34,884 nucleotides of DNA, taken from a virus (Duplodnaviria > Caudoviricetes). The DNA lies in IMG/VR virus record IMGVR_UViG_3300016667_000907, positions 1 to 34,884 of that record. One strand, written 5' to 3'. The position numbers were made by a program, and so were the translations under genes. Each line of letters begins with the position of its first letter. Within the stretch, counting starts at the first letter, position 1. Under the pieces are notes generated by a model that saw only the letters and a list, made by a program, of their open reading frames with translations, did no database searches and was not told the origin of the DNA. Positions 15,908-34,485 of this stretch are shown piece by piece.

Positions 15908-16396
15908 ATGCAATACAAGTACGTCTCCACCAAAGAATATATCAATGCGTTTCCATGCGCATATCGGCAGTGGCGAGCTGACTCACACTGCAACCTAATT
16001 CATGGCTATAGCTTCTCCATGAAGTTCTTCTTTGGTACAAACGACCTTGATGTTCGTAACTGGGCTGCTGATTACGGCGGCCTCAAAGAACTCAAGAAGA
16101 TTCTAGAAGATCAATTTGACCACACACTACTAGTAGCAGAAGATGATCCTGAACTAGAGATGTTCAAGGAACTAGAACGCAAGAAGATGGCTAAGCTTAC
16201 CATTCTTCCTCGTCTTGGTTGCGAATCTCTAGCTGATATGCTATACAGGTATGTCAATGGAGTCTATATCCCTGAATACTGGGGCCCAGGCGAAGCTGAA
16301 CGGCTGTGGTGCTTTCGAGTAGAAGTGCGAGAAACGGTGGCTAATATGGCTTATCGTGAAGGTCATCGCGACTGGAATGAAAATCTTCTAGGTTAA
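15908..16396 (+). CDS. queD: 6-carboxytetrahydropterin synthase QueD
   Basis: C..IHGY, DYGGLK.LK..L...FDH, E.LA, VEVRET. Confidence 0.9.
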   Translation: MQYKYVSTKEYINAFPCAYRQWRADSHCNLIHGYSFSMKFFFGTNDLDVRNWAADYGGLKELKKILEDQFDHTLLVAEDDPELEMFKELERKKMAKLTILPRLGCESLADMLYRYVNGVYIPEYWGPGEAERLWCFRVEVRETVANMAYREGHRDWNENLLG

Positions 16397-16408
16397 GGTA
16401 AATACAAT

Positions 16409-16504
16409 ATGGCTAAGATCAAGGTTTCCGAGATCTTCTACTCTCTACAGGGTGAAGGTCAATACGTTGGCGTCCCATCTATTTTTCTAAGGACGTTTGG
16501 TTAA
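16409..16504 (+). pseudogene. queE: Orphan queE 5' fragment (31 aa), absent from the ORF track
   Basis: Translates [31 protein letters not shown]; AAGG RBS. Last 24 aa are identical to the full queE at 17188. Confidence 0.9.
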
Positions 16505-16554
16505 CTGTGTAGGCTTCGAAGGATATATAACTGCATAGGCTTCGGAGCAGAACC

Positions 16555-17187
16555 ATGATTGTATACGGAATAGAAAACAAAATTACAGGTGATATTTACG
16601 TTGGTAAGACCAAGCATACTGTAGAGCAACGATGGAAGAGACATCTTCAAGATATGAAGTACACTAAAACGAAGTCGAAGCTTTATAATGATATTAAGAA
16701 GTATGAGCCTGATAATTTTGTGCTGTATATAATCGAACAATCCAGTGCTAGCCGTATTAATGAGCGAGAAATCTATTGGATAGAAGTACTTGAGCCCGCT
16801 TATAATATTGCTAAAGGTGGTAGCGGCGGAGTTATCGGCACAGGACAACTTGGTCGCCGCTGGAAAGTAAAGGATACCTCAAATATGAGAGGAAAGAAGA
16901 CGATAACTCCGGCTGTTATAGAAGGTAGAAAGCAAATAACAGGGGCTAATAATTATCAGTCGGTGTATAATATACACACGCCGTGGGGTAGTTACCCGAC
17001 CTGGACCGCTGCCATAACAGCTGCTCGAACTGGAAGAAATACTGGTATACCTGTGATAACTAATGTTATCACACTACAAAAATACTGTGAATCTGATATA
17101 ACATTACCCGCTAATGGAAGACGGACTCCAAAAGAATGGAGAGGTAAGTCTTCTCGAGAATTAGGGTTCTTTTTGGAGAAGCGCTAA
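16555..17187 (+). CDS. GIY-YIG homing endonuclease (Seg-like)
   Basis: IVY.I.N..TG.IYVG.T, RW..H, E.YWI, YN...GG.GG. Confidence 0.93.
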   Translation: MIVYGIENKITGDIYVGKTKHTVEQRWKRHLQDMKYTKTKSKLYNDIKKYEPDNFVLYIIEQSSASRINEREIYWIEVLEPAYNIAKGGSGGVIGTGQLGRRWKVKDTSNMRGKKTITPAVIEGRKQITGANNYQSVYNIHTPWGSYPTWTAAITAARTGRNTGIPVITNVITLQKYCESDITLPANGRRTPKEWRGKSSRELGFFLEKR

Positions 17188-18060
17188 ATGACTGCTATTT
17201 CTTATACAGAGATCTTTTATTCACTACAAGGCGAAGGTCAATACGTCGGTGTACCATCGATTTTCCTACGCACGTTCGGATGTAATCTGCGTTGCAAAAA
17301 GTTTGGAATTCCGCGCGACCAGGAAGTGGGTAAGTATAACCCGGAAGTAGAAAAGATCCTATCTGGAGGTCTCGATCAATATAACAAGTACGAAGATCTA
17401 CCTCTAGTATCTACTGGGTGCGATTCTTACGCTTCGATCTATCCTGAGTTTAAGCGGTTTGCCAAGCGTGAGTCTATCGGTGCTATTGCTAATCGTATTC
17501 AGGAACTGCTCCCGGGTGGTAAGTTCGGCCGCGATAAGCATATGATCATTACCGGCGGCGAACCCCTACTAGGCTGGCAGCGTTCGTTTCCAACTCTACT
17601 AGAAGAGTTCGAGACCCGTAACATGGGCATGACTCATCTTACATTTGAGACAAACGGTACCCAGGCTCTTCAGACTGAACTGCGTAACTTCCTATTCGAT
17701 CGTGCGTTGAAGGGTCTGGAAGTAACCTTCTCTATCTCGGCTAAGCTACCGGCTTCGGGTGAGAAGTGGGAAGATGCTATTCGACCCGATATTGTTCGAG
17801 AGTATATCAAGGTACCGAATCACCGCAGCTATTTCAAGTTTGTGGTATCGACAGAGGAAGATATTCAAGATGCGCATCGCGCGGTGAATGAATATCGAAA
17901 TGCTGGTATTGATATTCCAGTATATCTAATGCCTGTCGGTGGCACTAATGCAGTGTATGATCTTAATGAGCGCGCGGTAGCTGATTTCTGTCGTGATAAT
18001 GGGTATCGCTTCTCTCCACGCATTCAAGTCCCCCTGTATAAGAATGCATGGAGCACCTAA
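17188..18060 (+). CDS. queE: 7-carboxy-7-deazaguanine synthase QueE (radical SAM)
   Basis: [40 protein letters not shown]. Confidence 0.93.
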   Translation: MTAISYTEIFYSLQGEGQYVGVPSIFLRTFGCNLRCKKFGIPRDQEVGKYNPEVEKILSGGLDQYNKYEDLPLVSTGCDSYASIYPEFKRFAKRESIGAIANRIQELLPGGKFGRDKHMIITGGEPLLGWQRSFPTLLEEFETRNMGMTHLTFETNGTQALQTELRNFLFDRALKGLEVTFSISAKLPASGEKWEDAIRPDIVREYIKVPNHRSYFKFVVSTEEDIQDAHRAVNEYRNAGIDIPVYLMPVGGTNAVYDLNERAVADFCRDNGYRFSPRIQVPLYKNAWST

Positions 18061-18103
18061 AAAGTGACAATGCAAATCCACAATCAAACAAGATGCGCTA
18101 TGA

Positions 18104-18448
18104 TTGAATGGGAAACTAATCATGGTTGAGCTATTACCTTCCAATATTCACGATAAGTCCGTGTATGATACCAGTGATATTGCAGATATCGCCTCTGCCA
18201 AGTCGGTGCTTATTCGCTCACTAAAGCAAGTCGCCAAGTATAAGAAGAAGCTAGACGAATATAACGATATCGCGTATAGGTATAGGCTTTATCTTATTCG
18301 GTACTGCCTGGGCACTGAATGTGCTAAGGTAGAAACTACCGTAAAAGAATCATATTCATATGAGGATGATTACGGTAGCCTTAAGACGGGGGTTAAATCG
18401 GTAGAGGTATATAAGTGCACTACTTGCGATAAGACCTGGAGTCGATAA
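18104..18448 (+). CDS. Hypothetical protein with Cys pairs (possible zinc ribbon); start uncertain
   Basis: CLGTEC and CTTC; TAATG-coupled to the PRTase gene. Confidence 0.55.
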   Translation: MNGKLIMVELLPSNIHDKSVYDTSDIADIASAKSVLIRSLKQVAKYKKKLDEYNDIAYRYRLYLIRYCLGTECAKVETTVKESYSYEDDYGSLKTGVKSVEVYKCTTCDKTWSR

Positions 18449-18876
18449 TGTTTTACTCACAAGAACTATTCAATCAAGGTATTGAGAGCCTATCCAAGCA
18501 GATTACAGACTCTGGGATTAAGTATAACTATATTGTAGGGATCAATCGCGGAGGTCTAATCCCCGCGACTGTTCTTTCTTATAAGCTAGGAATCCCCCTC
18601 AAAGTAATTACCGTACAGACATATGACGATAAGGTAATCGAGGTAAATGTACCTAGGCATTACGTTGTAACGTATAACTGCCTTGTCGTAGATGATATTA
18701 TCGATAGCGGACGAACACTAAATGTGTTGCTTGATAAGTGGCAAGTGCGTACAATGGATGTCGCGTGCTTGGTATATAATCAAGGTCAGGACGAGTTCGC
18801 TCCAACGTATAAGCACTTGACGATTGATAAGCGTCAAGATTGTTCCTGGGTAACATTCTGGTGGGATTGCAAATAA
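18448..18876 (+). CDS. Type I phosphoribosyltransferase (Gpt/HPRT-like)
   Basis: VGINRGGLIPA, PRPP-binding LVVDDIIDSGRT, WV.FWW. Confidence 0.92.
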   Translation: MFYSQELFNQGIESLSKQITDSGIKYNYIVGINRGGLIPATVLSYKLGIPLKVITVQTYDDKVIEVNVPRHYVVTYNCLVVDDIIDSGRTLNVLLDKWQVRTMDVACLVYNQGQDEFAPTYKHLTIDKRQDCSWVTFWWDCK

Positions 18877-19577
18877 TGACAAAGACTACTATTCCTGTTT
18901 CTGAGCGCATTAAGTCACGTATTATCACTAGCGGTAAGCGCTTTTTTGCGTGTGATAATGTGTCTGATTTTATGTACGATGGTGAGGAGGAAGAGCTCGT
19001 ACTCGAGCTTACCGGTAAGTTTAATTCTGTTATCGATTCTCTCGTGATCGACCGCGAAAATGATCCTAATAGTCACGACACGGGTAATCGCTTAGCCAAG
19101 ATGTATGTTTATGAAATCATGTCCGGTCGTTATGAGAAGGCGCCTAAGGTAACTGCTTTCCCTAATACTGGCGAGAATTCTTATAATGGTATGCTAGTAG
19201 TACGTGCAGAGATTAAGTCTATGTGCTCTCATCACCACCAGCCGGTTAGTGGTGTAGCTTACATCGGCATTATTCCTACTAGTAAGGTCATTGGTCTTTC
19301 CAAGTACATTCGTCTTGCGCAGTGGTATGCACGTCGAGGTCAGCTGCAAGAAGAACTATGCGAACAGATCGCTAATGCTATCGTACAAGCTACCGGTAGT
19401 GATAGTGTAGCGGTATATCTACAAGCCGAGCATGGCTGCTGCACTAACCGTGGTGTAGAAGCGCATAGTTCTCTAACACAAACGACTGTACTTCGTGGTC
19501 AGTTCCACGACTCAAGTGTGAAGACTGAATTCTTCAATAATATCTCTATTCAACAGCAGTATTCTTCGAGGGGATAG
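18876..19577 (+). CDS. folE: GTP cyclohydrolase I FolE
   Basis: T..R.AKMY, SMCSHH, IGLSK..R, R.QLQE, H.C...RGV. Start reassigned to ATG 18876. Confidence 0.95.
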   Translation: MTKTTIPVSERIKSRIITSGKRFFACDNVSDFMYDGEEEELVLELTGKFNSVIDSLVIDRENDPNSHDTGNRLAKMYVYEIMSGRYEKAPKVTAFPNTGENSYNGMLVVRAEIKSMCSHHHQPVSGVAYIGIIPTSKVIGLSKYIRLAQWYARRGQLQEELCEQIANAIVQATGSDSVAVYLQAEHGCCTNRGVEAHSSLTQTTVLRGQFHDSSVKTEFFNNISIQQQYSSRG

Positions 19578-19587
19578 TATTACTAGT

Positions 19588-19619
19588 GGGAGTAAGCATT
19601 GCGCTTACTCCCTTGTTTT
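19588..19619 (+). terminator. Rho-independent terminator after folE
   Basis: GGGAGTAAGC-ATTGC-GCTTACTCCC followed by TTGTTTT. Confidence 0.8.
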
Positions 19620-19660
19620 AGATATTACTGGAACAGTTCTGTATATTAGAGGATATTTAA

Positions 19661-20449
19661 ATGCGTATTGCCCATGAAGCTCCTATCGCGATCTTTAATC
19701 TAGTACAGGAGATGACTGATTATGATTATTGCTTAGTCCACCTCATGGATGAACTTCCAGAATATCGTGATCTATTTCTCAAAGCTCGTGATGAAGGTGA
19801 AGAGATCATCCTCGATAACTCCATCTTTGAACTAGGTGAGGCGTATAACGCCGATCAATATTACGAGTGGGTAAAGGTACTACAGCCCAAGTACTTCATT
19901 ATTCCAGACAGCCTGAATAACTCGGCTGTTACTCTACAGCGTATGGAACATTGGTTTGATACTCGTGCTCCAGTACCTGGTTGTGGCGCTATGGCTGTAG
20001 TACAAGGATCTTCTATGGAAGAGCTAGTTGATTGTTACGCGAAGATTGCATATGATCCGCGTGTGGCTAAGATTGGTATCTCTTTTGATTCTATTTGCTA
20101 CTACGATAGTAACAGCCCACTATCCCGTGAAGCGCAGTTTATGAAGGGACGTAGTAACTTCATTCAATATCTTATTGAGAATAAGCTAGCAAATACTGAG
20201 AAGCCGCACCACCTGCTAGGTTGCTCTCTACCTCAAGAAATGTTCTTCTATCGTAATGTACCTTGGATTGAATCTGTAGATACATCCTCCCCGGTTGTAA
20301 ATGGATTACTCCACATCAAGTATACTATTCTAGGTCTCGAGTCTAAGCCTTCAGTGAAGCTATTTACTCTCATCAACTCTGAAGTGTCGGATGAGCAGGT
20401 AAACCTGATCGAGCATAACGTTAATATGTTTAGGAGTTTTTGTAATTGA
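19661..20449 (+). CDS. Divergent TGT-like TIM-barrel protein (DpdA3-like transglycosylase)
   Basis: ILDNS, IIPD, AVVQG, HHLLG, SVDTSSP match the TGT-fold motif order; embedded in the que cluster. Confidence 0.7.
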   Translation: MRIAHEAPIAIFNLVQEMTDYDYCLVHLMDELPEYRDLFLKARDEGEEIILDNSIFELGEAYNADQYYEWVKVLQPKYFIIPDSLNNSAVTLQRMEHWFDTRAPVPGCGAMAVVQGSSMEELVDCYAKIAYDPRVAKIGISFDSICYYDSNSPLSREAQFMKGRSNFIQYLIENKLANTEKPHHLLGCSLPQEMFFYRNVPWIESVDTSSPVVNGLLHIKYTILGLESKPSVKLFTLINSEVSDEQVNLIEHNVNMFRSFCN

Positions 20450-20991
20450 AGTGGATAGCTCTATTTTCCCAGTCGGGGTCAGAAATTGCTAGGCTAGCTA
20501 GTAATCTAGGTACTTGCCCCGACATGACTATCACTACTAATCGTGATTATAGCACATGGCACCCCGGTGTACGTCTGCTACCCCGAGTAGCTATCATGAA
20601 GAGCGAAGATATCCATTACATGCTAGAATCACGTGATGAGACTACTCTTATCACCATGCATGGGTATCTTCGTATTCTACCCGCTGCGGTGTGTAATAAA
20701 CACGAAGTGTATAATGGTCATCCTGGAGATATTATTAAGTACCCCGAACTAAAGGGTAAGGATCCTCAGAAGAAGGCTGTTGAACTAGACTTACCTTCAA
20801 CCGGTGTTGTTATTCACCGCGCTACAGAGAAACTCGATAGTGGCGATATTTACCGGTTCGCTCGTGTAGATATTCCAAAGCATGACGAGGAGCAACTAAC
20901 CCAAGCCTTGAAAGATGCATCTGTTAAACTGTGGACTGATTTCATGACAGATATTCTTTATACACTACGACATACACGAGGTGGTCTATGA
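20446..20991 (+). CDS. PurN-family formyltransferase (DpdN-like preQ1 formyltransferase)
   Basis: LFSQSGS, GYLRILP, NGHPG, GVVIH, LDSG correspond to PurN/Fmt motifs. Confidence 0.82.
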   Translation: MKWIALFSQSGSEIARLASNLGTCPDMTITTNRDYSTWHPGVRLLPRVAIMKSEDIHYMLESRDETTLITMHGYLRILPAAVCNKHEVYNGHPGDIIKYPELKGKDPQKKAVELDLPSTGVVIHRATEKLDSGDIYRFARVDIPKHDEEQLTQALKDASVKLWTDFMTDILYTLRHTRGGL

Positions 20992-21542
20992 AAATTGGCG
21001 TTTGTGGAGCCCAGAGTGTAGGCAAGACTACACTGCTTAATGCGTTAAGGTCAGAACGAGTATTTAAGGGTTATAGTATTTGCAATGAGGTAACCAGGAC
21101 AGTAAAGTCTTGGGGGCAGAGTATTAATGAGGGTGGTACCGATCTAACTCAACGCATGATCATGCTTCTTCATTTGGAGAATGTGACTCTACATGACAAT
21201 ATGATTACCGACCGCACCGCTCTAGATTGTCTCGTATACGCCCGATACCTGCATAAGCAGCAGCAACTTGATGCTTCTTCTGTACTCTATTGTAACGAGA
21301 TGTTCTGGAAGATCTGGCCTCAATACGATGCCGTGTTCTTTATTAAGCCAGAGTTCTGCATTGAAGATGATGGGGTTCGCAGCGTAAGTGTACAGTTTAG
21401 GGATCAAATCCAGAAAGAATTCGTACAAGTTATCGAAGAGCTTGAACTATACAAAGATCGAGTATATTATCTAACTGGTAGTGTTGCTCAGCGTGTCAAT
21501 CAAGTACTAACCGTTTGTAAGGAAAATTATAATGTCTATTGA
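20988..21542 (+). CDS. P-loop NMP-kinase-like protein (NadR/AAA_28-like)
   Basis: GAQSVGKTT, E..R, DRT.LD..VY, YD..F, EDDG.R. Confidence 0.8.
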   Translation: MKIGVCGAQSVGKTTLLNALRSERVFKGYSICNEVTRTVKSWGQSINEGGTDLTQRMIMLLHLENVTLHDNMITDRTALDCLVYARYLHKQQQLDASSVLYCNEMFWKIWPQYDAVFFIKPEFCIEDDGVRSVSVQFRDQIQKEFVQVIEELELYKDRVYYLTGSVAQRVNQVLTVCKENYNVY

Positions 21543-22455
21543 TAAGATTCTCGAGATTGCTTCTGTACACCTTGGTAAGGCTGGTGATGGTAGTGTTGTA
21601 AAGCCATATCAGACCCCTGATCGGGCTGATCCTTCTCTACTAGTTCCTATTCCCCGTGAACTAAATCGTACCGCGTATAAGATTACTGATGAGATCTTTA
21701 CTGGGTATGATAGTTGGAATTGCTATGAGACCAGCTTCCTACTCAATAACGGCTACCCTGTTAGTGGCGTTCTGGTGATTGAGTATCTATCCAACTCGGA
21801 ATGTATTGTAGAGTCCAAGTCACTCAAGCTATATCTAAACTCATACAATATGATGCGTATGGGTTATAGTATTGATGAGGCTATTTCACAGTTCACTGAT
21901 TGTGTGGAGTACGACCTAAATCGAGCGCTTAATACTCATGTAAGCGTGTCTTTTGTACAGAACAGTCAAAAGCCTTGTGTGGTTCCTCTCTATAATGTAG
22001 ACTTTCTATCGATTGATGATCTGGTCGATGTTTCCAGTCTTCAGTTTGATACCTACAATGAAGATCCATCTCTCATTAAGGCGGTAGAGTCGAGTACTGA
22101 TACAGTACAGCGTTTGCATACTTCTGCACTACGTTCAAACTGTCGAGTGACTAATCAGCCAGATTGGGGCGATGTTTATATTCATATTCGTGGTAAGCGT
22201 TTGGTAGATCCAGGTTCACTGCTACAGTACATTGTATCCATGCGACAGGAGAATCACTTTCACGAAGAAATTTGTGAAATGATGTATGCGCGTCTCTTTG
22301 AGATTCTCGAACCAGCCGAGCTCTTTGTGGCTTGTAATTACACTCGTCGCGGCGGTATTGATATCAATCCAGTGCGGGCGTCTGATACTGTTACTCTGAG
22401 TCTCGCCAATTCATGCATGTATACAGGTGTATACGCCAAGACTATGAGGCAGTAA
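21532..22455 (+). CDS. queF: Bimodular preQ0 reductase QueF
   Basis: W.CYE, ESKSLKLYLNS, LRSNC.VT.QPDWG, FHEE.C, YTRRGG.DINP. Confidence 0.96.
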   Translation: MSIDKILEIASVHLGKAGDGSVVKPYQTPDRADPSLLVPIPRELNRTAYKITDEIFTGYDSWNCYETSFLLNNGYPVSGVLVIEYLSNSECIVESKSLKLYLNSYNMMRMGYSIDEAISQFTDCVEYDLNRALNTHVSVSFVQNSQKPCVVPLYNVDFLSIDDLVDVSSLQFDTYNEDPSLIKAVESSTDTVQRLHTSALRSNCRVTNQPDWGDVYIHIRGKRLVDPGSLLQYIVSMRQENHFHEEICEMMYARLFEILEPAELFVACNYTRRGGIDINPVRASDTVTLSLANSCMYTGVYAKTMRQ

Positions 22456-22456
22456 T

Positions 22457-22837
22457 ATGGCGAAGTATGATCATGGTGGAGGATGCCCTTGCGGGCTCCT
22501 CCCTGAATGTGACAATAAATGCAACATTGCATTGGAACAACAATACATCAGCGCACTAATGGCTTCGAAAAATATCTTGCAAGATAATATTATTAAGAAA
22601 GTTGTGACGGATACCCGGTCGCCTGACACTAATGTGGAGGCGATACGTGAATCACTTCTACAGCGCTCCATTGTGGGTCTCAAAAAGTACAATACTACCA
22701 CAAATCGTACCGATCTTACTATGGGAGATTGGTTACAGCATCTTCAAGAAGAGCTTTTAGATGCCGCGGTTTACGTAGAGCGGCTTAAAAGTATGGTACG
22801 AAGTCTAGAAGCTGTATTTGGACCTGTTAAGAAGTAA
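22457..22837 (+). CDS. Conserved phage protein, possible all-alpha NTP pyrophosphohydrolase (MazG-like)
   Basis: RS.VG.KKY..T..R.DL...DWLQHLQEELLDAAVY with an EExxD acidic cluster; Cys-rich N-terminus. Confidence 0.5.
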   Translation: MAKYDHGGGCPCGLLPECDNKCNIALEQQYISALMASKNILQDNIIKKVVTDTRSPDTNVEAIRESLLQRSIVGLKKYNTTTNRTDLTMGDWLQHLQEELLDAAVYVERLKSMVRSLEAVFGPVKK

Positions 22838-22848
22838 GTAGATAAGAG

Positions 22849-22877
22849 TAGCATCATTATCCTCCAAGGTATATAAT
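22849..22877 (+). promoter_or_regulatory. sigma70-like promoter
   Basis: TAGCAT, 17 bp spacer, TATAAT, followed by AGGAG RBS. Confidence 0.6.
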
Positions 22878-22894
22878 GTGTAGGTTAGGAGATA

Positions 22895-23290
22895 ATGATG
22901 CTACCTCAGATCGGTCAAACAGTATCGGTTATTATTCGAAATAACCGCAAGGATCTGGATAGTTTCCGCCGCGCGGATTATAAGATTGAAGGTGTGGTTG
23001 TTCCCAATCATCGCTGGTTGAAGGATGACCACATCTGCGTTCTTACTAAAGATCGTAATTTTATCTCCCAGATCGCTATCAAGAATATTGTTTCCATCGA
23101 CGGTATTCAATCAAAGACTCCTTCAAAATCTACTAGCAATACACGCGTATATCAGGTAAAGTCTGTAAAGTCTGGTAGCGTGTACAATGTTACAATCTCT
23201 AATGATCAGGTGCAGTGCGATTGTGTTGGATTTCAATACCGACGCGATTGCAAGCACGCCCAGTTCATTCGTAAGATTAATACAATCTAA
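22895..23290 (+). CDS. SWIM zinc-finger protein
   Basis: V.S.KSG..YNV...CDC..F..R..CKH. Confidence 0.8.
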   Translation: MMLPQIGQTVSVIIRNNRKDLDSFRRADYKIEGVVVPNHRWLKDDHICVLTKDRNFISQIAIKNIVSIDGIQSKTPSKSTSNTRVYQVKSVKSGSVYNVTISNDQVQCDCVGFQYRRDCKHAQFIRKINTI

Positions 23291-23300
23291 AGGATAGAAT

Positions 23301-24059
23301 ATGTCACTCACAACCCAATACCTTGATCGTCTTTCCTCTTCTAAGCGCGGTGCTGTTATCGTGCTGTCAGGTGGTATGGATAGTACTATCGCTATGCGTC
23401 TGGCGGTAGCCAAGTATGGAAACAGCAATGTACGGGCTTTGACTTTTAACTACGGTCAGAAGCAGTCTCGCGAGATTCAGATGGCCGGGCAATCAACCGC
23501 TGCGCTTGGTGTAAAGCATAAGGTTCTTGATCTAGGAATTCTAGGTGAGATCTCTCAGGGATTCTCCGCTAATGTTGATACTGGCATTGAAATGCCGACC
23601 ATTCATGATGTACTAGGTGATCCACGCCCCAAGACTTACGTTCCTAATCGCAATATGATTCTAATGTCTCTATGCGCTGCGTATGCTGAAGTAGAAGACA
23701 TTGATCAGATCATCATGGGCTTGCAGGTCAATGATGAATATGGATATCATGATACCACGCAGCGATTTGTGGATAAGGTGAATAGTGTTCTAAGCGAGAA
23801 TCGTATTATTAAGATCGAGATCATCGCTCCTTTTGCTTCTATTACTAAGACCGACGAGATTATGCTTCTCAAGGAACTTGATGGTAATGTGAATCTACTA
23901 GAGCACACTCTTACTTGTTATAATCCAAATGAGAAGGGGCAGTCTTGTGGTAAGTGTCCTTCTTGTGCTGAACGAATCAAGGCGTTTGTTAATAACCGAT
24001 TGATTGATCCGGTGCCATACTCTATTAATATTGACTGGCATCGCTTTATGGGTCTATAA
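23301..24059 (+). CDS. queC: 7-cyano-7-deazaguanine synthase QueC
   Basis: SGGMDS, F.YGQK, YVPNRN, TCY..CGKCPSC..R. Confidence 0.96.
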   Translation: MSLTTQYLDRLSSSKRGAVIVLSGGMDSTIAMRLAVAKYGNSNVRALTFNYGQKQSREIQMAGQSTAALGVKHKVLDLGILGEISQGFSANVDTGIEMPTIHDVLGDPRPKTYVPNRNMILMSLCAAYAEVEDIDQIIMGLQVNDEYGYHDTTQRFVDKVNSVLSENRIIKIEIIAPFASITKTDEIMLLKELDGNVNLLEHTLTCYNPNEKGQSCGKCPSCAERIKAFVNNRLIDPVPYSINIDWHRFMGL

Positions 24060-24061
24060 CA

Positions 24062-24700
24062 ATGTGCGCTATTATTGGTACACGTAATATTAACAGCATC
24101 ATGCCTCTATACGAACTCAACTCGTATAGAGGCAAGCATTCACACTCTATCGCTGTGTATGATATTAAGCATGGCGATATTACGATACTAACTCGAGGTG
24201 TCGGCGAGCTTAAAGAGTCTGTTATTGACACTCTTCGGCGTGATTATAATCGAGACAACTACTACTACATCGTGCACTCCCAAGCACCTACTAGTGAAGG
24301 CCGATCAAGCGAATTCATTCATCCGGCTCATCATAATGGTTCGTACCTATGGCATAATGGCATTATCAAGGCAGTAGAATGCGATCGGCTTCGTAATACA
24401 CTGGGTTCCGATAGTCAATGGGACACTCAACTACTACTCATGAGCATCATTGATCAGGGGAATCTCAATAACCTCGATGGATCATTTGCTTGCTTACTCT
24501 ATCACCGCAAGCGACTCTTTATGTTTCGTAATGAGATCTCACCGCTTTTTGTAGATTTTGATTTCAACATCTCATCCACTAAACCTACTGGTGATTGGTT
24601 TTCTGTTGTACCTAATCGAGTATATTCCATTGACTTTGTAGCGGGCGCTACCGCTATTGAATCTACATTCAACACTTTTAGTTCTCCATACCTCCTTTAA
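24062..24700 (+). CDS. Class II (Ntn) glutamine amidotransferase-like protein
   Basis: N-terminal MC.IIG, RG..S, H..APT, HP, WHNGII, DT, GSFA. Confidence 0.85.
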   Translation: MCAIIGTRNINSIMPLYELNSYRGKHSHSIAVYDIKHGDITILTRGVGELKESVIDTLRRDYNRDNYYYIVHSQAPTSEGRSSEFIHPAHHNGSYLWHNGIIKAVECDRLRNTLGSDSQWDTQLLLMSIIDQGNLNNLDGSFACLLYHRKRLFMFRNEISPLFVDFDFNISSTKPTGDWFSVVPNRVYSIDFVAGATAIESTFNTFSSPYLL

Positions 24701-24711
24701 GGGCTACTCAT

Positions 24712-25221
24712 ATGATTGTACATCCACTATCGCTAGATAATATTATTAATAATGTAGACGAAAAGTGCATTCAACCCAACGCGGTTGATGTACGGGTATC
24801 AGCTTTTAGGTGTATCGACGACATCGATGGTATGTACGGAGACACCGGGGACTATACTAACCAGCTCTTTTGCATCGATGATAAGGAAACGGTGCATAAG
24901 AAGAAGACAGCAGAGATTCCAACAGACGATGATGGAAGCTGGCTTCTATATCGAGGTGTGTATGAATTCACATCACCGCATTATGTAACAATACCCGAAG
25001 GGTATGCAGGATATCTTATCACGCGGTCTTCACTGAACCGTAATGGTATTTTTGTTCTGTCTGGATTATACGACACGGGGTACCAGGGCTATATTGGAGG
25101 CACTTTATATAATCTCAACGGTCGCTTGAAGATCAAGAAGGGAACACGAGTCTGTCAGTTTGTTCTCTTAAAGTCGGAGAGCATCGGGTCATACGAAGGG
25201 CAATACAACCATTCTAGGTAA
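24712..25221 (+). CDS. Trimeric dUTPase/dCTP deaminase family protein
   Basis: QPN.VD.R, RSSL.R.G, YD.GY.G, KG.RV.Q, Y.GQY. Confidence 0.9.
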   Translation: MIVHPLSLDNIINNVDEKCIQPNAVDVRVSAFRCIDDIDGMYGDTGDYTNQLFCIDDKETVHKKKTAEIPTDDDGSWLLYRGVYEFTSPHYVTIPEGYAGYLITRSSLNRNGIFVLSGLYDTGYQGYIGGTLYNLNGRLKIKKGTRVCQFVLLKSESIGSYEGQYNHSR

Positions 25222-29687: not shown

Positions 29688-30548
29688 TTAACTCCTCAAG
29701 CAAGTAATTTTAGCGGTCCGCTCCCAATTCCCGGGATTAGCTTTCATGATAGAAGCGATCTTGATAGCCATTCGCAGCGAGAGCTCCCACAGATTATCAC
29801 TGTTCTTCTCAATAAAAGCCACTACTTCGTTGATCTGCTTCTTAGTTAAGCGATCAGAGAGCATACCATCCTCTTCGATGACCTGCTTAATACGCACAAT
29901 AAAGTCTCGCTTAGTACGCAGAGTTAGAGACAGGTAATGCGCTCGAGACACCAGAGCCGAGAGGTGTTCAGCCAGCTTATGACCAGACTGAATCATTCGA
30001 TCGAAGTCATAGTTAGTGATGAAGATAACGGAACCTTCGTAGTCAAACACAGTAGGAATAGGATCCTCGTCCTCATCACGCATCTTAGTCTCAGCACGCC
30101 AAGAGACCCTACGGCGTTCGGTGGTATCACAAGCCGCCTTAAGCAGGTTCAGAGTTACATCATCGAAGAAGACACTATCACTATCATCCAGTACCAGAAC
30201 ACTGTTCTTGTGGCGAGTCTCATAGAGCAGGCGATACAGACCAGTAGCCCGCACAAAGCCTCGAGCCACACGATACTCGGACTCATCCTTATTCTCGAGT
30301 ATACGCTCCACGGTAAAGGACTTACCCAGGCCGGGTGGACCAGAAGCAATCAACGCTCGGCTATCACCAGAGATAGTTGCCATGGCCAGCTCATGAAACA
30401 CATCGAAGCGTTCACGAATCCGCGTGCTGATCTCTTCATCAGTCTCATGTACCATGAGATCAGAGTTAGAGACCATGGGTACCACATTACTGCCAGACAT
30501 ACGGCGAGCGGTCATACGAAATCCAGTCTTGGGTACACCACGCGGCAT
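29688..30548 (-). CDS. P-loop/AAA+ ATPase
   Basis: Walker A GPPGLGKS, Walker B VLVLDD.D, sensor FITN, AL.SR; GGAGG RBS. Confidence 0.88.
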   Translation of the reverse strand: MPRGVPKTGFRMTARRMSGSNVVPMVSNSDLMVHETDEEISTRIRERFDVFHELAMATISGDSRALIASGPPGLGKSFTVERILENKDESEYRVARGFVRATGLYRLLYETRHKNSVLVLDDSDSVFFDDVTLNLLKAACDTTERRRVSWRAETKMRDEDEDPIPTVFDYEGSVIFITNYDFDRMIQSGHKLAEHLSALVSRAHYLSLTLRTKRDFIVRIKQVIEEDGMLSDRLTKKQINEVVAFIEKNSDNLWELSLRMAIKIASIMKANPGNWERTAKITCLRS

Positions 30549-30571
30549 AACGATCCTCCATCGATGAACTG

Positions 30572-30600
30572 CTTATAGCGGCTGGGAACTTATTATGCCA
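30572..30600 (-). promoter_or_regulatory. Early sigma70-like promoter TGGCAT-17-TATAAG
   Basis: Upstream of the ATPase gene; the same hexamers and spacing recur at 32026-32054. Confidence 0.7.
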
Positions 30601-30606
30601 TCAGAG

Positions 30607-31041
30607 TTAGCCGTACATCTTCTTTCGATTGAACTTAACCATGGGCGGGCCATAGTTAGAGTCCACATACTTCTCCTTAATCATCTTACTGATAGTGGTA
30701 TCATCCAGTTCAGGGTTAGAAGATAGAATAGACTTCATGAAGGATAGAGCAGATTCCGCTCGACCAGACTGACGCTTGGTAGTGGTCTTAACGGGCTTAG
30801 TAGCCTTATCAGAGTTAGCCTTAACCGCTTTCACACCCTTGATGCGGTTCATGGCCTCATCAATGGTATCAAAGATAGTAATACTCTCATCACGATTACG
30901 AATGGCAATCTCATCATGGACGAGATCATACACATAGTACTTGCCATTATAGATGACCGATTCCATGATCTGAAAGCGACCATCGATCAGATCACTGCAG
31001 TACCTACCGTCAGAGTTAGTTTGAAGAACGATATCAGCCAT
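30607..31041 (-). CDS. Hypothetical two-domain protein with basic C-terminal domain (possible DNA binding)
   Basis: GAGGAG RBS; K/T-rich linker followed by a short helical basic domain. Confidence 0.7.
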   Translation of the reverse strand: MADIVLQTNSDGRYCSDLIDGRFQIMESVIYNGKYYVYDLVHDEIAIRNRDESITIFDTIDEAMNRIKGVKAVKANSDKATKPVKTTTKRQSGRAESALSFMKSILSSNPELDDTTISKMIKEKYVDSNYGPPMVKFNRKKMYG

Positions 31042-31174
31042 TGTCTTCTCCTCTCCAACGCTTACGGTTATAGGCGCCTTTACCCTTCTTGGCCACTACT
31101 ATTTTTCGACCAAGCAGAGTTAGGTCCTTATGGTAAGGGTTTCTAGGCTTCTTAAGCTTAATTACGATCTTCAT
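31034..31174 (-). CDS. ArfA-like alternative ribosome-rescue factor (46 aa), absent from the ORF track
   Basis: MKIVIKLKKPRNPYHKDLTLLGRKIVVAKKGKGAYNRKRWRGEDNG; KKGKG(S/A)YxRK motif; GGGGA RBS. Confidence 0.72.
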   Translation of the reverse strand: MKIVIKLKKPRNPYHKDLTLLGRKIVVAKKGKGAYNRKRWRGEDNG

Positions 31175-31207
31175 ATTATTCCCCCAGGGAGGGAATAAAT
31201 CCCTCTG

Positions 31208-31513
31208 TTATGCGGCCGCCGCCTCTTCAGAGTTAGTAGCGGTAGCAATTCGCAGCTCATTGGCGATGCGAATACCCTGAATCAGACCAATGATCTGCTC
31301 TGCGGTATATCCGGTCAGAGTTACCACTGAACCAAAGCTAATATCAAAGAGGGCGCGAGCATACTTCTGTTCGGTAGAACGATTCAGAGTTACCTCCACG
31401 GGCGCACCCACCATGGCGGAAATCACCGGTACAATACCCGTGACAGCATCCTCCAGAGCAGAGTGAGACGCCGTCTTACGCACACGATCAGTCTTCTTAT
31501 AAACAGCCACCAT
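31208..31513 (-). CDS. Hypothetical early protein, paralog of 32102-32536
   Basis: Shared R.R.T.SH..L..AV, LNR....YARALFD motif. Confidence 0.8.
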   Translation of the reverse strand: MVAVYKKTDRVRKTASHSALEDAVTGIVPVISAMVGAPVEVTLNRSTEQKYARALFDISFGSVVTLTGYTAEQIIGLIQGIRIANELRIATATNSEEAAAA

Positions 31514-31573
31514 AATTCTTCATTCCTTCTCTTGGATACAGGTTATAGTGTATGGGAAGAAATAAAACCAGAG

Positions 31574-31753
31574 TTAGTTACTATACATCAACCCATTAAT
31601 TGGACTCCAGGAGACCACTACTTCCTCCTTGGAGTTAAGAATACAGCCTTCGAAGCAGCACATAATCAGGTGTTGAAGCGCTTCCTGTACCGTGGAGAAG
31701 CCCCCCTTCTTATAACCGGTATTGTAGAAGAAGATGGTATATTGATTATCCAT
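31574..31753 (-). CDS. Hypothetical protein (59 aa), absent from the ORF track
   Basis: MDNQYTIFFYNTGYKKGGFSTVQEALQH...WSPINGLMYSN; purine-rich RBS; fills the gap in the minus-strand run. Confidence 0.65.
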   Translation of the reverse strand: MDNQYTIFFYNTGYKKGGFSTVQEALQHLIMCCFEGCILNSKEEVVVSWSPINGLMYSN

Positions 31754-31800
31754 ATGGATACTCTCTCTTTCCGTACTAAGATATACGTTATGGGAGAGAA

Positions 31801-31995
31801 TTACTCCACCGAATCCTTCCTCTGGCGACGCAGGTAGACTCGACCGGGAGTCTTAATTTCCAGCTGAACCTCCTCAGAAAACGCCTCATCCAGAAGTTGG
31901 CGCTTGATCATCTCATACTCATTGGCGTTAACGCCAGAGAACGAGGACCGACCATTCTCACCGAGTTCCAGCCAGATGCGGTTCGTATCGTACAT
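31801..31995 (-). CDS. Hypothetical protein (64 aa)
   Basis: Start reassigned to MYDTNRIW, which has a GAGGG RBS and an upstream promoter. Confidence 0.65.
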   Translation of the reverse strand: MYDTNRIWLELGENGRSSFSGVNANEYEMIKRQLLDEAFSEEVQLEIKTPGRVYLRRQRKDSVE

Positions 31996-32025
31996 GTGCT
32001 CGTCCCTCTCAATCTCAATAACCCG

Positions 32026-32054
32026 CTTATAGCCTATGGGAGGGATCGATGCCA
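32026..32054 (-). promoter_or_regulatory. Early sigma70-like promoter TGGCAT-17-TATAAG
   Basis: Identical hexamers and spacing to 30572-30600. Confidence 0.7.
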
Positions 32055-32101
32055 CAGGTAAAGGCCTCGCCCAGTTACCTGAGCGAGGCGCTATGTTACC
32101 A

Positions 32102-32536
32102 CTACTCAGCGTCGTTTTTTTCCTCAGGGGCTTGATCCTTCTTCTGACGACGAGAAACCCGTTGATCTTTATTCTCCCGCTCACGTTCCCGTCGTGCAGC
32201 CAGCATTCTCTCACGACGTTGATCGGTGGCGGTAACATCATGCATCATACGCACACCATTCATAACAGCCAGCAGTTCTTCTACGGTGGAGTTCTCTACC
32301 TTGTTCTTGCCAATGCGAAGATCAAAGAGAGCTCGTGCATACCGATGCCCCTGGGCACGATTGAGTTCAATGGGAACATTGTACCCCACCGCTTTTTCCA
32401 GAAGAGCCTGCAGGCTTTCAACCGCTTCCTTCAACCGTTCATGTGACTGTGTACGGCGAATACGGTGCGGTTCTTTCTGATCAGTGTTAGCATTTTCAGA
32501 GTTAGAAGTATTGTCAATCTTGATGGCGTCGTTCAT
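32102..32536 (-). CDS. Hypothetical early protein, paralog of 31208-31513, charged tail
   Basis: GAGGAG RBS; YARALFD motif. Confidence 0.8.
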   Translation of the reverse strand: MNDAIKIDNTSNSENANTDQKEPHRIRRTQSHERLKEAVESLQALLEKAVGYNVPIELNRAQGHRYARALFDLRIGKNKVENSTVEELLAVMNGVRMMHDVTATDQRRERMLAARRERERENKDQRVSRRQKKDQAPEEKNDAE

Positions 32537-32634
32537 GTCAGTGTCTCCTCTTGGCTTCTGACATGAACGATTATGTTTGTCTTAAACCCAAGATTCCACA
32601 CAGAAATCCGTGGATAAAGTTTATTTTATCCGAG

Positions 32635-32865
32635 CTATTCCTTGTGGATCTTTTCTCCGACATGATACGACACTGTTTCGGTTACGATATCCGTGGTGTC
32701 ATAGATGGCTTCGATAAGAGAATCATTCTCTTTCAAGGCATCGACACAGTCTTCTATGTGGATTCGTACCGTTTCGTTGATCTCATCCTGTGTCAGGGTA
32801 TCGAGATCATCATCTTCATTGAATTCAAACGTAACATATACTGGTATCATGATTTCATACTTCAT
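32635..32865 (-). CDS. Small highly acidic protein
   Basis: TAAGGA RBS; D/E-rich; similar to 34183-34401. Confidence 0.75.
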   Translation of the reverse strand: MKYEIMIPVYVTFEFNEDDDLDTLTQDEINETVRIHIEDCVDALKENDSLIEAIYDTTDIVTETVSYHVGEKIHKE

Positions 32866-32904
32866 AACCAGATCCTTATATTAGTTATTGAGCACAACAT
32901 AGTG

Positions 32905-32933
32905 ATTATATACTGACCAGGGAAGTATGGCAA
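32905..32933 (-). promoter_or_regulatory. Early sigma70 promoter TTGCCA-17-TATAAT
   Basis: Near-consensus, with an AT-rich upstream element. Confidence 0.8.
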
Positions 32934-33266
32934 CAGAAAAATGCCAAAAATCGGAAATTTTTTCCTGGCATTATTATTTCCTATTGATATCAGGATAAAC
33001 GGGCATCTGCCCATTAGGGTTTGGGAGAGAATATAGCAACAGCTTCGAAGTCTCAGGCTAGATCACGGTTTCTCGCGACCCATCGAAACTGTAACCCATT
33101 GAAATCATTGGGGTTATGGATACGCTTTCGAAAACCTTAAGTCGTTGAAATCATTGAGGAATTTCCGAAAACTGCGCATCTAAACCCGGGCCCTCATATC
33201 GATACACTGTAAGCCCGCTGAGCTCGAGGAATCATTCTGGACGCAGAAGGAAGAAAAAAATCTACG

Positions 33267-33295
33267 TTGCAATATTTCTCCCTTCCCTCTATAAA
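33267..33295 (+). promoter_or_regulatory. Early sigma70 promoter TTGCAA-17-TATAAA
   Basis: A-tract UP element upstream; GGAG RBS downstream. Confidence 0.75.
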
Positions 33296-33319
33296 CCAGT
33301 TATAAGATGGAGAGATGAG

Positions 33320-33568
33320 ATGAAAGCTGCAACGATTATTCGCCGCGTGGCGAAGGATTTCTACGGTAACAACAATTTCTTCCTCTTTAACGATAAGATG
33401 AAGGATGGCCGTAGAAGCGTAAAGGTGCAAGTGTGTTGGAATTACGCGCGGAAGGACAAGGGCAGTGTTCCCACTTTCGTGGACTTTGCACGGGAATGCC
33501 TGTATCGTTTACGTAAGTGCGGTTACCGCCCGGTTATGAATCCGAGGGAATATCGCTTCTGGGTTTAG
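33320..33568 (+). CDS. Hypothetical basic early protein
   Basis: Has its own promoter and RBS; 82 aa. Confidence 0.7.
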   Translation: MKAATIIRRVAKDFYGNNNFFLFNDKMKDGRRSVKVQVCWNYARKDKGSVPTFVDFARECLYRLRKCGYRPVMNPREYRFWV

Positions 33569-33623
33569 TTACTTTATTTCTTCCTGGAAACCATAACAAA
33601 TCATAAGATGAAGGAGAGACGAA

Positions 33624-33773
33624 ATGCTTGAAGTGACCGATTTCGACCGCGAGTGGTTCAAGAATACCACCAACCGGGAAGGTACCGATCAAGAGATCTT
33701 TCGGTTTCTGGAGGAAATTAATCGGTACGTATCTTCCCTGGAAATCTCTCCAGAACTTTATTCTGGAGAGTAA
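33624..33773 (+). CDS. Hypothetical protein (49 aa), absent from the ORF track
   Basis: AAGGAG RBS; MLEVTDFDREWFKN...ELYSGE. Confidence 0.7.
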   Translation: MLEVTDFDREWFKNTTNREGTDQEIFRFLEEINRYVSSLEISPELYSGE

Positions 33774-33816
33774 ACCTCCCGACCGGTATCCATTGGTGGC
33801 CAAGGGAGGCAATACA

Positions 33817-33912
33817 ATGGATAACGCGGACATCAAACTGGTAATAGTCACTTTTGTCATCAGTACATTGGTGGCGATACTAATCGGCCTGGGATTATTC
33901 ACATTGATCTAA
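33817..33912 (+). CDS. Single-TM micropeptide (31 aa), absent from the ORF track
   Basis: GGGAGG RBS; MDNADIKLVIVTFVISTLVAILIGLGLFTLI. Confidence 0.6.
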   Translation: MDNADIKLVIVTFVISTLVAILIGLGLFTLI

Positions 33913-33925
33913 TACCGGTCTATAG

Positions 33926-33984
33926 AGGGAAAACACGTGTTCTAACCTATTGATTTTATTGGTGAAAAAACACGTGTTTTCCCT
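33926..33984. repeat. Perfect 16-bp inverted repeat flanking an IHF-consensus site
   Basis: AGGGAAAACACGTGTT (33926-33941) and AACACGTGTTTTCCCT (33969-33984); TAACCTATTGATT at 33943-33955. Confidence 0.85.
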
Positions 33985-34182
33985 GTTTTCCTGTTTCCTA
34001 TATGGTGGTATAGGCAAAACAAAAAAAGGGGTCAAGGAATGCATGACTTTTGACCTAACCAGTTGATTTAAAAGGAAAAATCAGGCTGTTATTCTGATAT
34101 CAGAATGACTGTAACTCGGAACTTTTTCTAGCTTCGTTTCCTCCCTTACCTTATAACCATATCGTCATGAGGAGACACTGAC

Positions 34183-34401
34183 ATGAAGGTTCGTATTATG
34201 GTCGAGTTTGACGTGGAACTCGAAACCGACGGTGAGGAACTCGATATGGATGTAATCCGTACCGAAGCAACCGAATGCCTTCGTATTCACGTGGAGAATA
34301 TGATGGATAACGATAACGAAATCGAACGTCTCGTCGATGATATGTCCGATAACATTGACTTTCTTGTGTCTGGTCTAGAATACAAGGTTACCGCTGCTTA
34401 A
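34183..34401 (+). CDS. Small highly acidic protein
   Basis: GAGGAG RBS; TATAAC -10 at 34152; D/E-rich. Confidence 0.8.
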   Translation: MKVRIMVEFDVELETDGEELDMDVIRTEATECLRIHVENMMDNDNEIERLVDDMSDNIDFLVSGLEYKVTAA

Positions 34402-34456
34402 CCGCGGGGAAGAAAAAAGACCAGGAATATGGGGGTAATGTGAGCCATATTCCTGG

Positions 34457-34485
34457 TTGATCGATTTCCTCCCTTATGCTATAAA
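34457..34485 (+). promoter_or_regulatory. Early sigma70-like promoter TTGATC-17-TATAAA, preceded by a 13-bp inverted repeat
   Basis: Inverted repeat ACCAGGAATATGG/CCATATTCCTGGT spans 34420-34457. Confidence 0.7.

Follow-up and report, generated by a model that had tools for sequence, protein, structure and literature searches.

Asymmetric DNA sites that act according to the direction in which a machine tracks along the DNA, and which stand in series or in pairs, are known from the Ter/Tus and RTP replication fork barriers and from the multi-box pac sites of phages SPP1, P22 and P1. The subject of this work is an array of one word in the virus record IMGVR_UViG_3300016667_000907 (Duplodnaviria; Caudoviricetes), a linear sequence of 34,884 bases with a completeness estimate of 19%, the whole of which is called the window below. 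Here an octamer is written twelve times in a single orientation (minus strand, 29919..32504) through a block of small early genes. In comparison with the fork barriers and pac sites, the word is much shorter, it occurs in one orientation only, and no Tus/RTP or terminase partner is known for it. An earlier reading of the window, made from its letters and open reading frames (ORFs) and referred to as the original prediction, had interpreted the array as binding sites for a phage or host protein, such as an iteron-like or parS-like zone, as a signal for injection or early transcription, or as an mRNA element.

The operators and stoperators of cluster A mycobacteriophages (L5, TipsytheTRex repressor), as described in one report (PMC9283540), share with the array more than ten asymmetric co-oriented sites, some of them at promoters. 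A phage-encoded two-domain helix-turn-helix (HTH) protein is also common to both, which in the window is a predicted, candidate reader. However, the L5-type sites described there are 13 bp long and lie in promoters or short intergenic spaces, whereas the word is 8-10 bp long, lies mostly inside coding sequence and belongs to a T4-like phage. The orientation of L5-type sites follows transcription; this is true in the window, but in its closest complete relative, a complete 162-kb record designated G006, the strand stays the same whichever way the gene at the site points, unless the antisense copies face read-through transcription. Because the rules of site length, placement and orientation fail, the array was not filed as an L5-type stoperator system. 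The iterons of T4 oriE are likewise direct repeats in a T4-type genome, close to a switch in transcription direction and with an undefined role, but in the published account (PMC3016281) they appear as evenly spaced 12-mers in one cluster, whereas the array has irregular gaps of 69-928 bp, lies inside genes and has a half-genome spread in G006. The Chi arrays of P1 and of Rec-less lambdoid phages, in two reports (PMC12315714; PMC8022716), consist of an asymmetric, strand-polar octamer clustered in one part of the genome and inside genes. Unlike these, the array word is no known Chi sequence and is not enriched in the sampled bacterial chromosomes, and the window phage encodes recombination genes of its own (UvsY, UvsW-like helicase, SbcCD-like). 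parS sites are palindromic, whereas the word is asymmetric (12:0 by strand), which weakens the parS-like option of the original prediction; general scans of the 57 window proteins revealed no ParB-family gene in this incomplete genome. Literature searches, which covered papers outside subscription, found no description of such a word array.

Results

The word of the array is exact, asymmetric and selected, and it is written into coding sequence through the choice of codons and amino acids. On the plus strand of the window, CAGAGTTA occurs exactly twelve times, which corresponds to TAACTCTG on the sense strand of the genes, with starts at 29919, 30150, 30461, 30602, 30810, 31011, 31115, 31228, 31316, 31385, 31569 and 32497; there is no copy on the other strand or elsewhere in the 34.9 kb. 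This recount of both strands agrees with the twelve same-orientation copies within about 2.6 kb reported originally. Extended to ten bases, (C>G)TAACTCTG(A), the consensus is CTAACTCTGA. The array contains six perfect matches to it, nine with one mismatch and four with two, whereas every sequence in the rest of the window departs from it by at least two bases. The near-copies already noticed at 30651, 30711 and 32482 are present and are joined by those at 30008, 30368 and 31459 (six one-mismatch copies, minus strand, 30008..32489), and the variant noticed at 34112 is a single TAACTCGG on the plus strand of the opposite early arm (34112..34119). The copies indeed occupy differing reading frames, five as Thr-Leu, five as Asn-Ser and two on TAA stop codons, and 10/12 lie inside coding sequence. 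No clear helical phasing was detected (highest R 0.54 among 26 periods tried). The word may resemble part of a 16S rRNA helix.

Markov resampling of the region gave an expectation of 0.1 copies, and no 8-mer of any sequence exceeded four copies in 300 resamples. In six array genes tested, the word was used at 10/10 compatible peptide positions in two frames, while the late genes used it at 0/18. Synonymous recoding of the array genes, the codon-preserving check suggested with the original prediction, left on average 1.6-1.7 copies and a maximum of 6 in 5,000 recodings, and so codon usage does not account for the array. An artefact of codons or of protein repeats was ruled out by this recoding, by the 10/10 versus 0/18 use and by the use of two frames and, in G006, of the antisense strand. 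One-mismatch copies were also in excess (6 observed versus 1.2 under synonymous recoding, P=0.001) when positions capable of the exact word were excluded; with these left in the null, the comparison was 7 versus 5.75 (P=0.32). The excess of near-copies forms a graded pattern, as for protein sites. These position counts and near-copies, together with the antisense use in G006 described below, bear out the original claim that the signal lies at the nucleic-acid level, and on the basis of selection and the graded near-copies an array of protein-binding sites, as first proposed, appears most likely. Strain differences were uninformative either way: none of the 39 differences listed fell inside a site (five of 45 were absent from the listing), as compared with an expectation of 1.0-1.7 for the 28 that lie at third codon positions or outside coding sequence (P=0.35 and 0.18). 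X2 and X3 look like one data set, and X1 may be the source.

The relative G006 carries the word in a changed form. Its proteins are 89% (capsid), 59% (NrdC.10), 50% (ArfA-like), 41% (HTH) and 33% (YARALFD) identical to those of the window. The octamer TAACTTTG, one base off the window word, was found 28 times on the plus and 6 times on the minus strand of G006; with C or G in front, the ratio between strands is 24:1 versus 2.5 expected, and it is the top-ranked strand-biased word of that genome. The flanks match those of the window word (C, then G, at -1 and A at +1), as does the polarity relative to the portal and capsid genes, judged by gene order; the G006-word duplex counterpart to the window consensus CTAACTCTGA is CTAACTTTGA. 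At the Leu-Thr-Leu of NrdC.10 (residues 208-210, 29919..29926), the orthologous G006 codons spell the variant word. On this comparison, the word is conserved in variant form and has diverged by one base between the relatives.

The G006 copies occupy an arc from 153968 through the origin of numbering to 72579, that is 80.6 kb of 162.0 kb or half the genome. This arc leads from the early region up to the terminase gene, and its final pair is situated in terL, adjacent to terS. At possible positions between 153.5 and 73.3 kb, the word was used at 11/24 in plus-strand (sense) genes and at 11/27 in minus-strand (antisense) genes, as compared with 1/50 on the same strand outside the arc and 6/96 on the other strand. 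Under recoding nulls, 12 sense copies were observed versus 0.77 (three of the 12 in a probably spurious ORF) and 9 antisense copies versus 0.38. A co-oriented neighbour within 400 bp was present for 24/27 arc copies versus 6 expected. The copies form about a dozen small clusters in G006 and a single block in the window, and the two phages have about the same site density. The window does not use the T variant at any of four positions in its array, nor, in the genes on the left, its own word at any of 21 positions antisense to them. With respect to transcription in G006, one copy lies in the spacer of a TTGACA-17-TATCAT promoter, three lie just past a TTGACT-17-TATGAT promoter that points at the YARALFD gene, and a pair brackets the start of the HTH gene; the divergent leftward early arm (157 to 8 kb) has no copies, and the antisense copies lie past the meeting point of the early arm and the late genes.

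Two further properties of G006 were recorded. A GC-rich gene island at 153500-157000 (DUF932 and a YARALFD homolog, 50-58% GC versus 37%) is flanked by AT-rich spacers that are dense in promoters and contain relaxed copies of the word, and it is possible that this island is an origin or a first-expressed region. GTAC is absent from G006 (0 versus about 1,090, both strands being counted), with TCGA depleted as well (288), which, as a feature of composition, suggests restriction avoidance.

The 144-aa protein encoded at 30607..31041 (minus strand) is, on the strength of its structural model, the best candidate for the reader of the word. The model comprises an N-terminal beta domain, a disordered basic linker and a C-terminal three-helix domain of predicted HTH type; a Foldseek search with this protein gave no PDB match. 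It has 99 homologs at the 50% cluster level, and the predicted recognition helix contains VKFNR in the window phage and VKFQR in G006. In 11 homologs with a VK[FY]NR helix, six strict word-compatible peptides ([SPTA]-N-S-[DE]) were found at differing positions versus 0.24 by shuffling, an indirect test on protein sequences alone, the result of which is inflated by the shared ancestry of homologs. Similarly, Val/Leu/Ile-Thr-Leu peptides number 1.75 each in the 8 closest NrdC.10 homologs versus 0.14 in 111 distant ones, which mostly have VSL and LAM at those places. Judged by these footprints, the word has bent proteins within a clade. Since neither word is enriched in the bacterial genomes searched and the words differ by one base between the phages, the reader is presumably phage-encoded. 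The original prediction had proposed the local AAA+ ATPase, the 30607 protein and the YARALFD paralogs as partners; the 30607 protein came out as the best candidate through its predicted HTH and the peptide footprint in close homologs.

Genomic setting of the array

Apart from the recombination genes mentioned above, the T4-type genes of the window include those for portal, protease, scaffold, major head, tail tube and late sigma, and on this gene content the window is a fragment of a T4-like phage. The closest isolate by capsid is Stenotrophomonas phage DLP6 (71%), and near-identical DNA is present in freshwater, wastewater and wetland sequencing runs, with no RNA data set among those listed. 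Small genes lie on the minus strand from about 28.2 to 32.9 kb and genes on the plus strand from 33.3 kb; because gene direction switches between about 32.9 and 33.3 kb, the array opens one of two divergent early arms. A near-consensus sigma-70 promoter (32933-32905) in the divergence region (32866..33319) is directed into the array.

All exact copies and the genes that carry them are on the minus strand. The NrdC.10-like AAA+ ATPase (29688..30548, 286 aa, phrog_1250) contains the Leu-Thr-Leu copy named above, a Val-Thr-Leu copy at residues 131-133 (30150..30157; Val-Ser-Leu in 66/108 distant homologs) and a Ser-Asn-Ser-Asp copy at 27-30 (30461..30468). The HTH gene has a copy at its stop codon (30602..30609), one base upstream of the predicted -35 box (TGGCAT-17-TATAAG) of the nrdC.10-like gene, one in the basic linker (30810..30817) and one at codons 8-11 (31011..31018). 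The gene of a 46-aa ArfA-like protein (31034..31174; PF03889 at 22.9 bits, under the 25.5 cut-off) contains one copy (31115..31122), and the gene of the 101-aa YARALFD paralog (31208..31513) contains three, as Thr-Asn-Ser-Glu (31228..31235), as Val-Thr-Leu 64 (31316..31323) and as Val-Thr-Leu 41 (31385..31392). The stop codon of a 59-aa ORF with no assigned function (31574..31753) coincides with the copy at 31569..31576, which overlaps the predicted -35 box (TGGTTT-17-TATAAC) of the 101-aa gene. As originally remarked, the copies at 30602 and 31569 thus abut -35 regions, although the promoters themselves are predicted. A probable 64-aa ORF with its own predicted promoter (31801..31995) has zero copies, and the 144-aa YARALFD paralog (32102..32536) carries the last one at codons 11-14 (32497..32504); its G006 homolog is the YARALFD gene followed by three variant-word copies.

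Several observations concern the neighbourhood of these genes. The start of the ArfA-like gene (ribosome-rescue peptide type) is preceded by an inverted repeat that could hide its ribosome-binding site, and the gene is adjoined by the YARALFD paralog pair, of which the 101-aa member has an Atlas model resembling the HPF/S30AE fold, under the bar of that service. The predicted early promoters of the window (30572-34484) have a pyrimidine/CCC-rich spacer and a -10 box of TATAAG, TATAAC, TATAAA or TATATC, mostly without T at -7. Promoters without this T are typical of Alphaproteobacteria (PMC8407463), and those of the window may, by their sequence, point to an alphaproteobacterial host or to a phage activator. 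Three full consensus matches to IHF-like sites lie within 33943-34091 (33943, 34056 and 34079), with one-mismatch copies at 33092 and 33138. DnaA-box-like words occur at 32590-32650 upstream of the 144-aa YARALFD gene, with a one-mismatch box at 32609, although matches of this quality are frequent in the window (64). A 22-base inverted repeat (95%) at 32532-32553 and 34166-34187 covers the ribosome-binding site and start codon of one gene per early arm. Contigs break at 33145-33188, in a stretch which appears to recur about 2.6 kb further right, past the window end. The strain in runs X2/X3 lacks 301 bases at 33303-33605 (82-aa ORF), a cassette-type deletion joined via a 6-base repeat between promoter-like units. 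Farther away, QueD, QueE, FolE, QueC and neighbours at 15908-25221 form a queuosine-pathway block on the plus strand, which likely serves 7-deazaguanine DNA modification, and homing endonucleases interrupt QueD/QueE and the helicase region.

Searches in other genomes

A three-copy pattern scan of viral contigs returned 52 loci, all but two with the in-frame spacing typical of protein repeats and none related to the array region, and no dense array was found at 109 loci around nrdC.10 relatives (44-60% identity); these cluster scans required 5-6 copies in 3-8 kb, which a dispersed pattern such as that of G006 escapes. Searches for DNA of the closer clade, in which nrdC.10 is 63-72% identical, returned none. 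Look-alike clusters were rejected as artefacts in G002 (Asn-Ser repeats of tail fibres) and in G003 (a paralog family). The latter genome has, at 157300-161400, about ten tandem paralogs of a small protein that starts with MNERI and ends with HFGVE. In G001-G004 and G015, three of which have few genes on the minor strand, no word stood apart as over-represented on a single strand irrespective of gene orientation (best 2.6 versus 5.0 for G006). Among 50 related virus records, strand skew was strongest in G006 (25:2); in a nearly identical set of 50, an HTH homolog was present in two, G006 and the 5.2-kb fragment G040, and G023 had a skew of 1:8 without one. Rfam gave no match.

Among bacteria, the window 10-mer was counted in 401 genomes from the phylum of the Legionellales record G052 and in 201 from that of the Haliscomenobacter record G053, and it reached at most 16 copies per genome; one of the 401, G380, is unpublished and was used for this tally alone. 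The G006 word was not enriched in 251 genomes, which largely overlap those sets (at most 46 per genome, control 38; largest excess 41 versus 17). Counts of this sort, made on samples of genomes, would pass over a host regulator that has few sites.

Discussion

The presented results suggest that a DNA-binding protein made by the phage likely docks on the word in a directional manner. Because its use is independent of gene direction in G006, the word appears to be read on DNA, and it is probably a DNA-strand signal and not an mRNA element. The single orientation over tens of kilobases implies a machine moving along DNA in a set direction. RNA polymerase is put first among such machines because of the sites at two -35 boxes, the promoter-associated sites of G006, the empty leftward arm and the antisense copies past the meeting point of early and late genes. 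In the reading that we prefer, with a probability of about 0.35, the array consists of operator and roadblock sites for the predicted HTH protein, acting on one transcription arm. The HTH protein would accumulate and occupy the sites; once bound, it would damp the promoters of the arm, including that of its own gene, and the sites would form a one-way roadblock, at which RNA polymerase elongating on the early arm would be stopped. In the window phage, this would take place at one dense block at the head of the arm. In G006, pairs would be spread along the arm and would continue into the late genes that converge on it; there, polymerase would come upon them in the blocking orientation only when reading through from the early arm. 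L5-type repressors are an established case in which an HTH protein at asymmetric sites arrests elongation in a polar manner (PMC9283540).

A number of observations weigh against this roadblock reading. The best structural matches of the C-terminal domain of the 30607 protein are the DNA-binding domains of Lrp, ArgR, Myb-type proteins and GcrA, but their scores (Z 4.4-5.5) are close to the Z of about 5 which is common for three-helix bundles. The HTH protein is not singled out as the reader by co-occurrence, because the HTH, ArfA-like and YARALFD genes occur together (all in G006). The fragment G040, in which an HTH homolog is present, contains no repeated word in its 5.2 kb, while G003 has a skew of 10:0 without an HTH homolog, with 9 sense copies versus a recoding mean of 3.8 (maximum 7 in 25). 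Besides the indirectness of the footprint test already mentioned, the other 92 homologs of the 30607 protein also show a slight excess of compatible peptides (4 versus 0.96 expected). In G006, the median distance from site to promoter was not significant (P=0.22), copies in promoter cores number 2/27 (P=0.29), and the rightward replication genes use the word at 1/16 positions. Moreover, the antisense copies extend 18 kb into the late genes and end at the terminase, a pattern for which a signal for forks or for packaging accounts equally well. Finally, the DNA comparison of the variant word comes from one relative.

The machine in question may also be the replication fork, although we regard this as unlikely. 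The word would then be a polarity signal, either a loading site for an initiator or helicase loader (the HTH protein together with the AAA+ ATPase of NrdC.10 type) or a barrier that, like Ter, halts forks in one direction, and replication from the early divergence region would be made to run one way. The polarity independent of gene direction is consistent with such a role, as are the half-genome length of the G006 arc and the IHF-like sites and DnaA-box-like word near the array. In lambda, origin sites lie inside the gene of the initiator O itself, and here sites lie inside the candidate reader's own gene. The array also adjoins a point of transcription divergence, as do three T4 origins (PMC3016281). 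However, the other half of G006 is without mirror-image copies (one on the opposite strand with C or G at -1), and its top-ranked words are unrelated and weaker. The half-genome fit requires that the copy at 141683 be dropped post hoc; if it is kept, the stretch free of copies measures 69 kb (P=0.015 for 13 random clusters). The irregular spacing in the window is a further difficulty and, with the location mostly in coding sequence, weakens the classical iteron among the original options. The ATPase model (predicted local distance difference test, pLDDT, 86.7) ties the MoxR, sigma-54 activator, DnaA, MuB and RuvB folds, with DnaA/Cdc6 level with other AAA+ clades (Z 10-12), and does not favour an initiator. 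A signal for packaging or genome ends seems about as improbable, whether as co-oriented pac-like boxes for the small terminase or as sites near virion DNA ends orienting end processing or DNA entry. The G006 arc ends with the pair in terL beside terS and runs in the direction of terminase transcription, its copies are paired as in multi-box pac sites, and Chi sites clustered near the genome termini are known from P1 and lambdoid phages (PMC12315714). On the other side, the 25 kb of head and recombination genes in the window, which bear copies in G006, are those without antisense use (0/21), the G006 clusters show no headful periodicity (P=0.75), and T4 is circularly permuted without defined ends (PMC3016281). 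The window is without terminase genes and its array lies more than 28 kb from the portal gene.

An RNA element UAACUCUG, read by a phage endoribonuclease, a termination factor or an RNA-binding protein such as the YARALFD paralogs and timing the decay or termination of early transcripts, is very improbable. All window copies are on the sense strand, one YARALFD paralog has the HPF/dsRBD-type model (under the bar) next to an ArfA-like gene in the block, and the antisense G006 copies could be read on read-through RNA. The equal sense and antisense use in G006, with its antisense excess under recoding, nevertheless weakens the mRNA element of the original prediction, as do the copy within a promoter spacer, the lack of an accessibility bias in the array (0.47 versus 0.41 +/- 0.18) and the lack of an exact copy on the opposite early arm. 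We consider it more remote still that the word is a site for a host protein, whether of the Chi or KOPS kind or serving as a decoy of some host regulator. The Chi variants of different host groups are set apart by single bases (PMC8022716), as are the two phage words, but the word resembles none of the five Chi motifs given there, and the absence of enrichment of both words in the sampled bacterial genomes likewise weakens the host chromosome signal considered originally. For something other than these readings there is a small chance. Less likely than not is the proposal that a clade of T4-like phages has a private, co-evolving polarity code, in which a phage-specific octamer read by the phage HTH protein labels a single strand of one arm, whatever genes lie there, and directs a genome-wide process (replication, packaging or DNA entry), perhaps with the NrdC.10 AAA+ ATPase as the motor or loader for that protein.

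Summarizing, the array is real, selected and conserved in variant form and, as far as can be read from the two genomes, is a DNA polarity word of a T4-like clade with a candidate reader only. The natural one-base variant, which occurs antisense as often as sense, points to DNA over RNA, and the predicted helix of the candidate reader differs between the phages, as do the words. If the roadblock reading is true, a T4-like phage would have a control of the stoperator type, with consequences for how early-gene shut-off in such phages is understood. If a fork or packaging signal is true, the word would be a phage-made genome-polarity code, a counterpart of KOPS, Chi or Ter. A polarity code of the kind proposed would also give the first functional handle on NrdC.10, conserved yet uncharacterised, which is present in 1,300 sequenced phage records.

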